A program made the translations under genes and the position numbers. Below the pieces are notes generated by a model. That model had not been told where the DNA came from, made no database searches, and saw nothing but the letters and a program-made list of their open reading frames with translations. Shown in pieces: positions 6,278 through 28,620 of a stretch of DNA of 35,897 bases (within the stretch, counting starts at the first letter, position 1; every line of letters begins with the position of its first letter). The stretch is from NCBI GenBank assembly GCA_030639065.1, contig DAOWDJ010000006.1:1-35897 (forward strand), written 5' to 3'. Source of the stretch: an archaeon. Its GTDB lineage: Archaea; Nanobdellota; Nanobdellia; Pacearchaeales; GW2011-AR1.

Positions 6278-6916
6278 TTAAATTTTCTTTACCAACTTGA
6301 AGAGTGCTTCATAAAACTCTTCCATATTATCTCCGTTTTTAGCCGAAATCCCAACAACCTCATATTCTGGGAAAGCACCTTGTATCTTCTTAATATCAGA
6401 CTTTTTTAAATCTATCTTATTCGCAACAACTAATACAGGAATATTTCTAGCAACCAAATTTCCAATAATCGTAATATTCACCTGCGAATACGGATTCATC
6501 GTCGAGTCAATCAGGATAATAACTGCATCCATATCATCCAACCATTTAATAGATTCAATAATTCCTTGCGTTGCTTCCTTGGCTCTATCTTGTGCCGCCT
6601 TTCTTTTTAATCCAAATTTCATAAAATCTTCAAAATCAATCTTCGTCGCAATCCCAGGAGTATCAATTAACTTAAATTCAATCTTTTTTCCATCCCTATC
6701 TAGAACAACTTTTTCCTTAACTTGAATTGTTCTAGTCTCATGTGGCATCTTACTTACCGAGCCTAAATCCTCACCCAACCAATCCTGACAAATCCTATTC
6801 GCCAAACTAGTTTTCCCAGCATTTGGCGAACCATAGAAACCTAGTTTAATTTCTCCCTTCTTCTTAAATACACCAGAGAAAATCCTACGAGCAAAATTCC
6901 TAATTATCTTTATCAT
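6278..6916 (-). CDS. small GTP-binding protein
   Basis: G1 GSPNAGKT, G3 DTPG, G4 NKID and G5 SAK are all present in order. Confidence 0.85.
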   Translation of the reverse strand: MIKIIRNFARRIFSGVFKKKGEIKLGFYGSPNAGKTSLANRICQDWLGEDLGSVSKMPHETRTIQVKEKVVLDRDGKKIEFKLIDTPGIATKIDFEDFMKFGLKRKAAQDRAKEATQGIIESIKWLDDMDAVIILIDSTMNPYSQVNITIIGNLVARNIPVLVVANKIDLKKSDIKKIQGAFPEYEVVGISAKNGDNMEEFYEALFKLVKKI

Positions 6917-7088
6917 AGAAAAAAATCTCCAGATTTTTTTCTCGCAAGGACTTTGTCATTGCATAATACAAATACCTTTTGTTTCAAAATTCTATCTACC
7001 ATAGAAAAAAATCTCCAGATTTTTTTCTCGCAAGGACTTTGTCATTGCATAATACAAATACCTTTTGTTTCAAAATATTACCTATCAT
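6914..7088 (-). repeat. tandem 86-bp promoter-leader repeat, two units
   Basis: Unit starts (cat in the plus-strand text) are at 6914, 7000 and 7086. The units are near identical. The same family occurs at 21782-21978. Confidence 0.9.
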
Positions 7089-9829
7089 TATACTCTTCTT
7101 TGAAATCTAGATTTATTAATCTTTCTCCGCATTTGTTGTCTATTCTTAGTAATAATATTTTTATTATACGCGCCAACAGGCAACGGACCTTTGGCTACAA
7201 CTTTTGCAGCCTGCACATTTCTTGCCTTTCTATTTCTCGAAAATGCTGCAATTTTCTCAATCGGAATAATTTCAACTAAGCCCGTTCTCCTCCCTCTTGA
7301 CTTTCTAATAATATAATTAACTCGCTCACTGGACCAACCCCTCTTCCTCAATATTACGGCAATCCTCGAATCTTTCTTTCCTTGCGCTCTAGCATTCGTT
7401 ACATACATCAGAAGATTATACATTTGCCGACCATCCTTAAATAAATACTTCTCATACTTATGCTTATACCAAACCTGCAAAATAGTATAGATAATCAAAA
7501 CAAATACCAATGCTAGAAATACATAAATAACTGCTTCTGTTACTGGCTTACAATCGCTTCTGCAATTAATTGAATTTTCTCCATACTCCTCTTCACAAAC
7601 TAAATTATAATTACAACTTGTATCTATCGCACTCTCAAGAAGTATAGAACCTAATTTTGGAGAAATAAAAAATGATATTGCTTCCTCATTTTCATAATAA
7701 AATTCAAACGAAACATCCTCTTCGCTGCCCAAGACAATAACTGTTGCATCTCCCGCTTCTTTAGCTCCAACATCATTCTTAAAAAATAACTCACTAAGTG
7801 GCATATTAATTATAAAATAACTCTCCTCATTACTCCTAGAACTAATGTCAAAACTATATGTATTGAAAACTCCATTACTATCTCCATTCCATAAAGAAAT
7901 CAAAAATTCTTTTTTATCAAAACTTACATCAATATTTTCATTCTGCCAAACCAAAATAGGTTCTCTATAATATGTGCTATCTACCTCGCTTTCATCCCCT
8001 CCAGCTATGACAACGGCCTCAACATTAACGTCCTCAGCTTCAGTTATTAGATAAGAGCTATGATAGTCCTCAATATTAATTCTAGTTGGAATGTTTAACG
8101 TATAAAGATACTTAGCTATATCAACAAAATTCTGATCACTAGCAGCACTTTCTTTTGCTTCATCCAATCTATCTAGCTCATCATAAAAGAAAGTAGCATT
8201 GACGATATTTAATAATGCATCTTTATACCAAAAAGTAAAATTACTAAAACTAGAATTAATCTTATTTAAAGCATTTCTCTTAGATACTAGGTTTATATCC
8301 ACAGCCGCCCTAGGGCTAATAGCCTCAATTTCAAAACTTCTTTTAGATGTTAGACCTAGTCCGGCCCCAACTTCAAGATTCAATGTATAGTTACCTAAAT
8401 TTGCATAACTATGCGAAATACTAGGCTCACTTGTCGTGACAACCTTACCATCTCCGAAATCCCATTTATAACTTAATGAACTATTGTCATTAAAATTAAC
8501 TTTAGCATAAAATTGAATAGGCACACCCGCAGGAGGATTTAATGGAGAAACCGAAAAAATCTCTGGCACTAATAAAATTTCCATCACTTTACCAAAAAGT
8601 TCTTCCCCTCCAAGCTTAACAATATAATCCATACTTTTGGAAACACTAAACCCAAGCATCTCTAAATCGAGAACACCATCAAAATTAATCATAACCGAGC
8701 TAACATTTAATTCATAAATACGATCTTCGTCATCACCAAGCTCTCCCCCCTCTTTGTACGCCAAAGCTATGTCAGAAATACTAACATTTTGAGAAACCCC
8801 CGAAAAAACTAAAGGCAAAACACAACCTTCCGAACAATCTTTATCATATCTTTCTTCAATAATTTCATTGGCCATATCAAGCAATTCCTCATTCAAATCA
8901 CCATTATTAAATTCATTCCATTCAAGCCAACTAGAATCAGCATACTTTAAAGATTGAACAAAAATTCCATAATCTTTTACACTTTCTGTCTGACTTGACG
9001 GACCTACAAAGCCACAGTTTTCACCAACACTCTCCTCATAGATATAATAATCTGTATCCCCTGCTGCACTAATACAAACATAATAATCACCAACAGAAGA
9101 ATCTTCATTTATAAAACAACCCTCCTCTCCTAAGCTCGGGTTAAAATCACATGTCCCAAAAGTCCCACCAACGCTATTTTCAGAATAAACACTCATTGTT
9201 AAATCACTCGTTTCATCATTTGATATAGATACATCAGCCCCTACTCTCAATCCCCCACTATTTGGAATATTAATAAGCTCACAATAAAGCGAATCTCCAA
9301 TACGACGATCACCAGTTGTTCTACTAACCTTATCATAACATCCCCAATCTTTAGGTAAAAATGTAGTTGAAAATTCATTGAATTTCCAAAGCTCTTCCTC
9401 AAAAAATTTAATAATCAAAGGCATCCTATAACTTTCGTCAAAATCACTTTCTATACTAAAGCTCAAACCAGTTAAAACAACACTATCTCCATATAGGACA
9501 AATCCAATAGTCTTTTCCCCAGAAGAAGGAACACTAAAAGTCTCACCAGCAATATTTCCCAAAGGTTCATATCCATTCATACAACCAGAAGGGGAACACC
9601 CAAAATCTGCAGAGTTGAATTCCAAAAAATCTATAAGTCCAATCTCATCGTCATTATTAGATTCTATCTTAGCATCATAATCCGCCTCACTAATTGTTAG
9701 GTTAATTTCCCCTTTAATTATCTCAGACGGAAGAGAAATATTGCTAACATTTACATCGTGCACTGTAACCGCGCCCAAAGCAAATTCGCCAAACATACAA
9801 AGTAAAACTAATAACAACCACTTTTTCAT
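7088..9829 (-). CDS. large surface protein: signal peptide, PKD domain, C-terminal TM helix and 125-aa basic cytoplasmic tail
   Basis: Signal peptide MKKWLLLVLLCMFGEFALGA. PKD motif YKWDFGDGKVV...NYTLNLEV. TM helix AVIYVFLALVFVLIIYTILQVWY. SD GGTGAT upstream. Confidence 0.8.
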   Translation of the reverse strand: MKKWLLLVLLCMFGEFALGAVTVHDVNVSNISLPSEIIKGEINLTISEADYDAKIESNNDDEIGLIDFLEFNSADFGCSPSGCMNGYEPLGNIAGETFSVPSSGEKTIGFVLYGDSVVLTGLSFSIESDFDESYRMPLIIKFFEEELWKFNEFSTTFLPKDWGCYDKVSRTTGDRRIGDSLYCELINIPNSGGLRVGADVSISNDETSDLTMSVYSENSVGGTFGTCDFNPSLGEEGCFINEDSSVGDYYVCISAAGDTDYYIYEESVGENCGFVGPSSQTESVKDYGIFVQSLKYADSSWLEWNEFNNGDLNEELLDMANEIIEERYDKDCSEGCVLPLVFSGVSQNVSISDIALAYKEGGELGDDEDRIYELNVSSVMINFDGVLDLEMLGFSVSKSMDYIVKLGGEELFGKVMEILLVPEIFSVSPLNPPAGVPIQFYAKVNFNDNSSLSYKWDFGDGKVVTTSEPSISHSYANLGNYTLNLEVGAGLGLTSKRSFEIEAISPRAAVDINLVSKRNALNKINSSFSNFTFWYKDALLNIVNATFFYDELDRLDEAKESAASDQNFVDIAKYLYTLNIPTRINIEDYHSSYLITEAEDVNVEAVVIAGGDESEVDSTYYREPILVWQNENIDVSFDKKEFLISLWNGDSNGVFNTYSFDISSRSNEESYFIINMPLSELFFKNDVGAKEAGDATVIVLGSEEDVSFEFYYENEEAISFFISPKLGSILLESAIDTSCNYNLVCEEEYGENSINCRSDCKPVTEAVIYVFLALVFVLIIYTILQVWYKHKYEKYLFKDGRQMYNLLMYVTNARAQGKKDSRIAVILRKRGWSSERVNYIIRKSRGRRTGLVEIIPIEKIAAFSRNRKARNVQAAKVVAKGPLPVGAYNKNIITKNRQQMRRKINKSRFQRRV

Positions 9830-9994
9830 TTTTTAATCACCATCTTAACAAAATGAAACATGAAACTTCTTCGAAGTTACTTTTTCATAGAATAAAATAA
9901 CAACTATACTTTATAAATTTTCTGCAGAAAATTTATTCATGAAACATTTTTAATGTTACTTTATAAAACTTTCAAATTACTTTCTTTTAATATC

Positions 9995-21499: not shown

Positions 21500-21625
21500 T
21501 TTTCGACCTCCAGATAGAATAAATGTTTCCATGAAACGTGTCATGCGTTACTTCAAACATTTTCCAGCCTCCAAGATGGACAAATGTTTCTATGAAATAT
21601 CTCGCATATTACTTCAAACATTTTG
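21490..21625 (-). repeat. 61-bp tandem duplication of the SD/start region of the platform gene
   Basis: CTTCAAACATTTT occurs at 21490, 21551 and 21612. Each unit carries GGAGG and ATGTTTGAAG in gene sense. Confidence 0.85.
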
Positions 21626-21784
21626 TTCCCCAATATCTTTGCCAATTTGATTATGTAAATCAAAAATGAAAGTCCTCAATTTATTAATTTTATCTGTTTC
21701 TTTGTTTGCAACAACTTTTTCCAATTGCAATACTGCATCACTCATAGAATCCACCAACTGTCCAACAAGTTCAATATCTACCAT
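21614..21784 (-). CDS. small helical protein, 56 aa (start moved to MVDIELVG)
   Basis: The ORF-track N-terminus (21785-21838) reads through the 85-bp repeat. The ATG at 21784 has the repeat-borne SD upstream. Confidence 0.45.
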   Translation of the reverse strand: MVDIELVGQLVDSMSDAVLQLEKVVANKETDKINKLRTFIFDLHNQIGKDIGEQNV

Positions 21785-21978
21785 AGACAAAAATCTCCGA
21801 TTTTTTTCTCGCAAGGACTTTGTCATTGCATAATACAAATAGCTTTTGTTTCAAAATTTTATATACCATAGACAAAAATCTCCGATTTTTTTCTCGCAAG
21901 GACTTCAATCACCAGATTACCTACTGGGTTGTCATTGCATAATACAAATACCTTTTGTTTCAAAATTCTATCTACCAT
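21782..21978 (-). repeat. tandem 85-bp promoter-leader repeat, two units, the distal one with a 24-nt insertion
   Basis: Unit starts are at 21782, 21867 and 21976. The insertion caatcaccagattacctactgggt at about 21906-21929 sits in the loop of the unit hairpin. Confidence 0.9.
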
Positions 21979-22071
21979 CTTTAGATAATAAAAGAAAATA
22001 TCTTTATTAATGTTATCAACACTTAGGTCCACAATTTTTTATTCCCAATTCTAGATTATGCACTCTTAATT

Positions 22072-24804: not shown

Positions 24805-24926
24805 CTTTCAATATTTTCTAAATATTGCCATGATAGTTCTCTGAACTTTCTTTCAAATTTTTTATTGTAAAAAATTTGTATGATACTTTCCTAAAGTTTC
24901 TTTCAATATTTTCTAAATATTGCCAT
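24805..24926. promoter_or_regulatory. two exact 27-nt repeats, each containing the 19-bp palindrome CAATATTT-TCT-AAATATTG
   Basis: The exact copies are 24805-24831 and 24900-24926, with palindromes at 24809-24827 and 24904-24922 (spacing 95 bp). The proximal copy abuts the SD of the pilin gene. Confidence 0.6.
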
Positions 24927-28458: not shown

Positions 28459-28545
28459 GTTCAACTTCGGTTGAATATGCTTGGCTTCGGTTAAGTATTG
28501 GGAAGTTAAACAGCTTCGGTTTTTTAGCTTCCCTCTTTTTATTTT
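28459..28545 (+). ncRNA. candidate small RNA built of three consecutive cUUCGg-capped hairpins
   Basis: TATA ctttataac 28429-28437 lies about 25 nt upstream. H1 28460-28475 is TTCAAC-TTCG-GTTGAA. H2 28477-28498 has a 9-bp stem with G.U pairs. H3 28500-28533 is GGGAAG...AGC-TTCG-G...CTTCCC. The T-rich tail is TCTTTTTATTTTTTAT. Confidence 0.5.
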
Positions 28546-28620
28546 TTATCTCTGTAATTAAACAAATAAAAACATGAAACTTTTCCAAAATTTCTTTTTT
28601 TATTTTAAATTACCCAAATC

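Follow-up and report, generated by a model that had tools for sequence, protein, structure and literature searches.

What are the two repeat units of 85 and 109 nt that lie head to tail (21785-21978) directly in front of a small gene in a Pacearchaeota (DPANN) archaeon from cold-seep sediment? They match a second pair at 6914-7088 of the window, i.e. the whole 35,897-nucleotide stretch of DNA analysed here, and they could be read as regulatory RNAs, peptide genes, promoters, local duplications or insertions. In this work we compared the units with related copies and with the orthologous sites of relatives, whose sequences carry L numbers below. It appears probable to us that the feature consists of tandem copies of a non-coding start-codon leader cassette of about 86 nt with three hairpins, mobile or duplicative in nature and analogous to the MIRUs of mycobacteria.

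Arrangement of the units in the window

The genes in this region lie on the minus strand. The gene targeted by the units encodes 56 amino acids and has no Pfam family; its upstream neighbour encodes a T2SSE ATPase of 510 aa and its downstream neighbour a T2SSF platform protein of 457 aa. At the sister locus, the gene of a PKD surface protein is followed by that of an Era-like GTPase. The coordinates of all features are collected in Table 1.

Tandem Repeats Finder reported an array of period 85 at 21779-21952 and a perfect array of period 86 at 6914-7076. The core TCTCGCAAGGACTT occurs exactly four times in the window, at 6940, 7026, 21807 and 21892 (0.18 matches in shuffled sequences), and so does the core GTCATTGCATAATACAAATA, at 6955, 7041, 21822 and 21931 (0.01 in shuffled sequences), all on the plus strand. 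The preliminary description of a second tandem pair in the same orientation as the 6914 locus is borne out by the period-85 array and by these one-strand matches, and the 1-nt difference that it reported between the two loci (tctccgat versus tctccagat) is real. Searches of the window with nhmmer and a covariance model, filters off, gave no copies beyond these four.

In the sense of the genes each unit opens with ATG-RTR and an A/T-rich stretch (TATAAAAT in the family consensus) and continues through three hairpins to the next ATG. The first, hp0, has the sequence UUUUG-AAA-CAAAA; the second, hp1, is GCAAUGAC-AAA-GUCCUUGC, with 8 bp and a conserved U.C mismatch; the third, hp2, is AGAAAAAAAUC-GGA-GAUUUUUGUCU and holds a GGAG motif within its loop. 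As had been proposed, it is the proximal unit that gives the 56-aa gene its SD and ATG context. Upstream of the pair lies a TATA-like box, identical in sequence and spacing to the promoter of the 56-aa gene in relatives with an empty site.

Table 1. Positions of the repeat units, their parts and related features (window coordinates unless an L number is given)
Feature	Position	Strand	Remarks
Native TATA-like box TTAATAAA, promoter of the 56-aa gene	22003..22010	-	24 nt before first ATG
Distal unit, 109 nt including the 24-nt insert	21870..21978	-	covariance model 66.6 bits
ATG1, opens distal unit	21976-21978	-	part of left ATGGTAGAT copy (21970-21978)
hp0, distal unit (UUUUG-AAA-CAAAA)	21953..21965	-	
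hp1, distal unit	21896..21938	-	arms 21896-21903 and 21931-21938; loop enlarged by insert
24-nt nested insert, tip of distal-unit hp1	21906..21929	-	core of second dispersed repeat
hp2, distal unit	21870..21894	-	A-run/U-run hairpin; GGAG 21880-21883 in loop
Proximal unit, 85 nt	21785..21869	-	opens with ATG2 (21867-21869); covariance model 94.1 bits
hp0, proximal unit (UUUUG-AAA-CAAAA)	21844..21856	-	
hp1, proximal unit	21811..21829	-	GCAAUGAC-AAA-GUCCUUGC
hp2, proximal unit	21785..21809	-	loop GGAG 21795-21798, 10 nt before gene ATG
Right ATGGTAGAT copy, true start of the 56-aa gene	21776..21784	-	ATG3 at 21782-21784
56-aa gene, target of insertion	21614..21784	-	directly upstream of T2SSF platform gene, conserved in relatives
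Sister locus, two units at GTPase start codon	6914..7088	-	direct repeat ATGATA
Second repeat, copy in L001	5358-5384		
Second repeat, copy in L004	101-190		
Second repeat, copies in L033	1223-1300, 2290-2370, 4248-4420		
Second repeat, copy in window	21906-21929		the nested insert

Copies at the start codons of unrelated genes

Species-representative genomes and metagenome contigs were searched for the two hp1 arms separated by a gap of 0-30 nt, which resulted in 19 loci; nhmmer and the covariance model added diverged and short copies. The family thus comprises about 30 copies on about 20 contigs, all of them in sense orientation and each ending directly on a start codon. The genes that follow are unrelated to one another and encode aIF5A (four times), a PCNA-like protein, an S2P protease (twice), L40e, P0, membrane and pilin-like proteins, a GTPase and the 56-aa protein. 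Tandem arrays are also found in L003 (two copies), L007 and L010 (three copies). No copy was detected in approximately 190 kb from eight other relatives, nor in viral contigs, and the family is patchily distributed among Pacearchaeota. Reads cover the repeat core 9 to 30 times as deeply as the flanks, and assembled contigs end there, as expected for a multicopy element.

The orthologous sites of relatives show what the units have been added to. Orthologues of the 56-aa gene carry zero, one or two units. There is none in L022, L023, L024 and L025, where ATTAATAAAGATATTTTCTTTTGTTATTTAAAG directly adjoins ATGGTAGATATTGAA, i.e. a TATA box is followed by 24 nt and the ATG of ATGGTAGAT. In L020 and L021 a single unit stands between ATGGTA and ATGGTAGAT, and in the window two units follow the same promoter as in the empty relatives, with ATGGTAGAT on both sides as a direct repeat. 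The site of the GTPase gene reads TAATGATAAAG in L035 and L037 (93% identical), which are empty, and in the window 172 nt flanked by ATGATA are present there. For aIF5A, L001 is filled and L033/L034 are empty, with 95% identity of the protein. Both states were also seen for the S2P protease gene and for the aIF5A-L40e and L1-P0 junctions, so that empty and filled sites are known for six genes (56-aa, GTPase, aIF5A, S2P, L40e and P0).

The orthologous sites of relatives lack the units, and in the window the first 9 nt of the gene are found duplicated on either side of the pair; judging from these alignments, the units have been inserted right at the start codon of a gene without a leader. Among 111 genes of relatives, TATA-like hexamers show a sharp maximum at positions -30..-27 relative to the ATG, as is typical of leaderless transcripts, and the cassette therefore lands between transcription start and coding sequence. 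Through recombination between the flanking repeats, loss could yield empty sites as readily as gain.

Given the insertion at start codons, we prefer a cassette over an RNA gene or switch with a dedicated function. The latter would be a cis-acting leader RNA, i.e. a 5' UTR that binds a protein or senses temperature or a ligand, common to a translation, replication and surface regulon, in which hp2 gates the SD sequence and the start codon. We regard it as unlikely, although the three hairpins covary on the sense strand, the sequence of hp1 is near-invariant across genomes, and the targets include aIF5A, L40e, P0, PCNA and a ribosome-binding GTPase. The same genes lack the unit in relatives as close as those with 95% identity in aIF5A or 93% in the GTPase, the copy number per site ranges from 0 to 3, one array is placed at an ATG within a gene, with 11 codons left to the stop, and the targets are heterogeneous in function, with pilin-like, membrane and protease genes among them. 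Copies of the AAUUAAAAAC subfamily allow an alternative pairing between the 5' arm of hp2 and UUUUUAGAUU, which lies upstream of hp1, so that two folds exclude each other, but this pairing is absent from the subfamily of the window. Rfam holds no family matching the units at gathering score or at E values up to 10, matches in the region being noise; its only gathering-score matches in the window are the SRP RNA and a tRNA. Readings of the hairpins or of the insert as C/D box, K-turn or BHB intron were dropped, the consensus boxes being missing on inspection by eye.

The array at an internal ATG is located in L010 (1287-1599, minus strand) and consists of three identical 112-nt units placed 11 codons before the stop of a gene for a membrane protein of 293 aa. 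Each of these units carries a 31-nt duplication that rebuilds the C-terminus MEVYFTPLLF*, and the cassette is therefore tolerable at the 3' end of a gene. Short forms of 63 nt were found in L004 (2557-2619 and 7275-7337), where ATGATATATAAAA is followed directly by hp1 and hp2, without hp0. They carry GGGAG or GGAGG and lie inside operons, at the aIF5A-L40e and L1-P0 junctions, where in relatives the stop and start codons overlap.

Tandem arrays with flanking repeats, as in L010, L003 and the window, would also arise if the pair were a purely local slippage duplication of the 5' region of the gene, without dispersal, and a separate 61-nt tandem duplication of the start of the next gene lies only 160 nt away. 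Such an origin is most improbable, since the unit is also found 14.9 kb away, before the unrelated GTPase gene, and before at least 13 more unrelated genes in other genomes, and since the unit body has no counterpart in the empty sites. Dispersal to unrelated genes refutes local duplication as the full explanation; slippage may still have led from one copy to two.

The junctions bear on how the cassette is joined to its targets. The flanking direct repeats always begin at the A of ATG and measure 3, 6, 7, 8, 9 or 31 nt, among them ATGGTAGAT at the 56-aa locus, ATGATA at the GTPase locus, ATGGTGAT in L013, ATGGAT in L005 and the 31 nt of L010; such variable lengths fit no classical transposase. 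The internal junction of the GTPase locus, ATGGTAGATAGA, is identical to the start of the first unit at the 56-aa locus. As this sequence derives from the start of the 56-aa gene, a unit has been copied between the loci together with its donor flank. The copies of the window are far more alike among themselves than a window copy is to the orthologous copy in L020, which indicates recent copying or homogenisation inside the genome. Of 15 targets, 8 start with ATGRTR, compared with 13.7% of the genes in the background (p = 3e-4), and of 10 targets, 7 have a stop codon at +4..+6, which is the case for 10.6% of the background (p = 1e-5). This target bias would follow from microhomology with the ATGRTR ends of the cassette or from selection favouring sites where the relay ORF described below soon meets a stop.

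Hairpins, mini-ORF and nested repeat

In 22 distinct copies, 89% of the cells in the three helices pair, compared with 38-50% when the partners are slid, and compensatory changes occur in 12 pairs, values reached by none of 500 shuffles; this covariation reflects few independent, subfamily-level events among related copies. The sense strand has 14 G.U cells and no A.C cells, and it folds better than its complement in 20 of the 22 copies. In the diverged aIF5A copy at L015:862-949, hp1 is kept as GUAAUAGC-UAU-GCUAUUAC, and in another diverged copy an A-U pair is replaced by G-C. The hairpin that the preliminary description had recognised in the unit is thus a real, selected structure, and the restriction of wobble pairs to the sense strand, together with the better fold of that strand, means that it is selected as RNA or as single-stranded DNA. 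Across genomes hp1 is near-invariant (its arms were fixed by the search pattern in most copies), and TATATAAAAT is conserved close to the 5' end; so much conservation exceeds the needs of a neutral passenger and may point to a function, e.g. in protein binding, as a promoter or in mobility, which lies outside the cassette account.

One such function would be that of a portable or 'mobile' promoter. In that case ATGATATATAAAAT would be a TATA box with a transcription start about 24 nt downstream, just before hp1, hp1 would be a stabilising hairpin at the 5' terminus, hp2 a ribosome-binding module, and units in tandem would amount to promoters in tandem. Mobile promoters are a published concept (PMC3575422), and TATATAAA matches the TATA consensus of the lineage and lies 31-33 nt before the conserved ATG of UUAUGCAAUGA, close to the native geometry of -27..-30. 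The short forms would provide a promoter within the operons aIF5A-L40e and L1-P0, yet their predicted start falls inside hp1, which is conserved there nevertheless. Moreover, the box is degenerate in three of the four units of the window (GATAGAAT, GGTAATAT), all filled monocistronic sites retain the native promoter, correctly spaced from ATG1, and hp0 covaries although it would fall in the untranscribed spacer between box and start. We therefore think it improbable that the units serve as promoters.

The units also have coding capacity. In about 16 of 26 distinct copies, a mini-ORF of 29-39 codons runs from the 5' ATG to a stop located at +1..+11 of the following ATG. The mini-ORF is shifted in frame and stops inside hp2 in five copies and has an early stop in three, so that 8-10 of the 26 are broken overall. 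The frame is open in most copies and is kept by the 24-nt insert of the window and by an insert in L018 (PVG[ND]LVI), as would be expected if the units encoded a functional small peptide of about 30 aa, such as a uORF peptide. Nevertheless, the frame relative to hp1 differs between subfamilies (FRLCNDKVLA... versus LDYAMTKSLRN*), the mini-ORF ends after 10-11 codons in three copies, the first third of the peptide changes along with the covarying hairpins, and the two loci of the window end in different C-termini. The preliminary description had already noted that the C-termini weaken a peptide reading, and we agree: a conserved peptide product is rejected, being largely refuted by the frame differences among copies, and a peptide function has hardly any likelihood left. 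A peptide that is not conserved, in a frame that is mostly open, fits the role of a translational relay rather than that of a product, and this relay is not universal.

The distal unit differs from the others by 24 extra bases, caatcaccagattacctactgggt, between the hp1 arms (gcaaggac and gtcattgc on the plus strand), exactly as first described, and the mini-ORF does remain open across them (LCND-NPVGNLVIE-VLARKK). Contig pieces of two other public runs cover this part without differences (21877-21958 and 21884-21958), which indicates that the insert is no assembly artefact; both runs belong to the same cold-seep study, which makes their independence weak. The fold CCAG...CTGG suggested for the insert is possible, but the fold that is backed by related copies is another one, a mini-hairpin of the sense strand, AAUC-UGGU-GAUU.

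These related copies belong to a second dispersed repeat with the pattern (...AAAACCAGGGUUUU-)ACCCAGUAGGU-stem-UGGU-stem', which is intergenic in L001, L004 and L033/L034. In its full length of about 70 nt it reads GGGTTTTTAA...TTAAAAACCAGGGTTTTYACCCAGTAGGT-stem-TGGT-stem'-TAA and occurs in either orientation relative to genes; in L033/L034 tandem copies precede the promoter of aIF5A. The mini-hairpin of the repeat shows covariation (GAUC/GAUC, GGUC/GACC and CUC/GAG, with AAUC/GAUU as the form of the window). Sequence comparison identifies the 24-nt insert as the core of this repeat (ACCCAGTAGGT with stem-TGGT-stem), nested in the distal unit. Matches to the second repeat on two viral contigs were dismissed as chance, both being located within coding sequence.

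The same piece of the second repeat is also present in the L018 copy of the cassette, between hp1 and hp2 and not in a loop, and it shares one mini-ORF frame with the window insert, the source of the common reading given above. That the relay frame survives the 24-nt insertion is happenstance. An insertion confined to the loop had been taken as a sign of a functional stem. None of the other copies has an insert in the hp1 loop. The loop insertion is a single event, which says little on what the stem tolerates, and the L018 piece lies between hairpins. Both insertions are outside the stems and in that respect fit the original idea, two events carrying little weight.

A proposed mechanism and comparison with known repeats

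The steps by which such a cassette might establish itself can be put together as follows. It would be copied in at the start codon of a leaderless gene, between the TATA box with its transcription start and the coding sequence, and at the 56-aa gene the insertion would have duplicated the first 9 nt (ATGGTAGAT). The native promoter would still start transcription, giving an RNA that begins with the ATG of the cassette. Ribosomes loading on this 5'-terminal AUG would translate the relay mini-ORF of 29-39 codons through the hairpins, stop 1-11 nt beyond the next AUG and use that AUG to initiate again. In the subfamily of the window they may be aided in this by GGAG, which the hp2 loop exposes 10 nt before the AUG. 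Relay and re-initiation together would explain why the insertion is tolerated. Spread may occur by template switching or recombination anchored on ATGRTR microhomology at both ends of the cassette, or by an enzyme recognising the conserved hp1; tandem pairs could then result from re-insertion, or from slippage between the flanking repeats.

The closest published analogue appears to be the mycobacterial MIRUs, the likeness being one of function and not of sequence homology; MIRUs are bacterial and the cassette is archaeal, and no sequence relationship is expected. According to the summary in PMC12548453 of the description by Supply et al. 1997, MIRUs insert at start codons and carry an ORF that is translationally coupled to the displaced gene by overlapping stop and start codons. 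As far as that summary goes, MIRUs and the cassette are both short dispersed repeats (40-100 bp), often in tandem and variable in copy number, and both have the orientation of the flanking genes, which for the cassette holds in about 30 of about 30 copies. The cassette, too, lies exactly at the start codon, as shown by the six genes with empty and filled sites, and varies in tandem copy number, with 0, 1 or 2 copies at the 56-aa gene, 3 in L010 and 2 in L003. The ORF that would be coupled is open to +1..+11 in about 16 of 26 copies and broken in about a third. The differences are that the targets of the cassette seem to be mostly leaderless, so that its ATG would take over the 5' end of the transcript, that the cassette is defined by three covarying hairpins, and that its stop codon is usually at +4 (ATGGTAG), compared with a spacing of -4 for MIRUs. 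Our literature searches found no archaeal description of such start-codon cassettes.

Other small repeats are more distant. MITEs such as Correia/NEMIS, ERIC and BOX/RUP are co-transcribed with neighbouring genes (PMC10969869). Like the cassette, they are small, non-autonomous, structured, multicopy and gene-adjacent, may carry signals that act in RNA processing or are promoter-like, and are able to nest within each other (PMC10969869). However, the cassette lacks terminal inverted repeats, its ends ATGRTATATAAAAT... and ...GATTTTTNTCT not being reverse complements in alignment A1, it makes no target duplication of fixed length, and it is strict in orientation and in its position at the start codon, whereas MITEs insert in either orientation. 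The Rickettsia palindromic elements (RPEs) resemble it as palindromic selfish repeats that survive through compatibility with the translation of host genes (PMC10969869), but they occupy coding regions in frame and are translated into the protein, whereas the cassette precedes the start codon, except in L010. Mobile promoters (PMC3575422) share with it near-identical upstream sequences before non-homologous genes, within and between genomes; with the cassette, by contrast, the native promoter is retained upstream and the repeat is predicted to be a transcribed, structured leader at the ATG.

REP/BIME/REPIN elements and IS200/IS605-derived palindromes resemble the cassette in their hairpin, which is imperfect and has a conserved mismatch, in selection that acts on one strand and in clustering in tandem. 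The cassette differs from REP and REPIN sequences in having no conserved 5' tetranucleotide of the GTAG type and in its head-to-tail copies, which are never inverted and form no paired inverted doublets; from REP and IS200/IS605-derived sequences it differs in lacking two similar end hairpins and in its variable flanking duplications. These last two traits do not fit a single-stranded DNA mechanism of the IS200/IS605 or integron attC kind; a one-strand hairpin with a mismatch does, and such a mechanism may be involved.

A wider reading is possible, which we put forward tentatively and consider somewhat doubtful: the cassette may be one family of an undescribed class of archaeal mobile elements that home to start codons in one orientation, with hp1 as a single-strand recognition handle, the ATG-proximal bases as joining homology, and a relay ORF and SD sequence that let leaderless genes survive. 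If so, such elements would be a main route by which leaderless genes of DPANN archaea gain structured, SD-bearing leaders and by which small repeats nest into one another.

The cassette reading in itself, if true, would mean that a leaderless archaeal gene can become a leadered, SD-assisted one in a single insertion step, which bears on evolutionary change of initiation modes. The cassette would be a natural 'bicistronic design' part, allowing termination-reinitiation to be tested in archaea, and could serve as a copy-number strain marker, like mycobacterial MIRU-VNTRs. For annotation and assembly it matters that these repeats break contigs, create spurious ORFs of 30-70 aa and cause mis-called start codons. 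Even sub-megabase DPANN genomes contain several interacting families of small insertion repeats.

Some further repeats near gene starts were observed in the window. Between the stop of the 56-aa gene and the T2SSF start (21502-21624, minus strand) lie two tandem units of 61 nt, each opening with ATGTTTGAAG, the T2SSF gene's own start, and closing with GGAGG and a spacer. This site is empty in L022, L023, L025 and L026, where stop and start overlap (ATGTTTGA), and L020/L021 have both units; they seem to form another family of start-codon insertions, unrelated to the first. By the start of a pilin-like gene, a 27-nt sequence, CTTTCAATATTTTCTAAATATTGCCAT, is repeated perfectly and in direct orientation at 24805-24831 and 24900-24926, 95 nt apart; it ends in CAT, i.e. 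ATG on the gene strand, and may be another gene-start duplication. Finally, two 68-nt stretches upstream of genes (9818-9885 and 28532-28599) are 71% alike and both contain ...AAACATGAAACTT....
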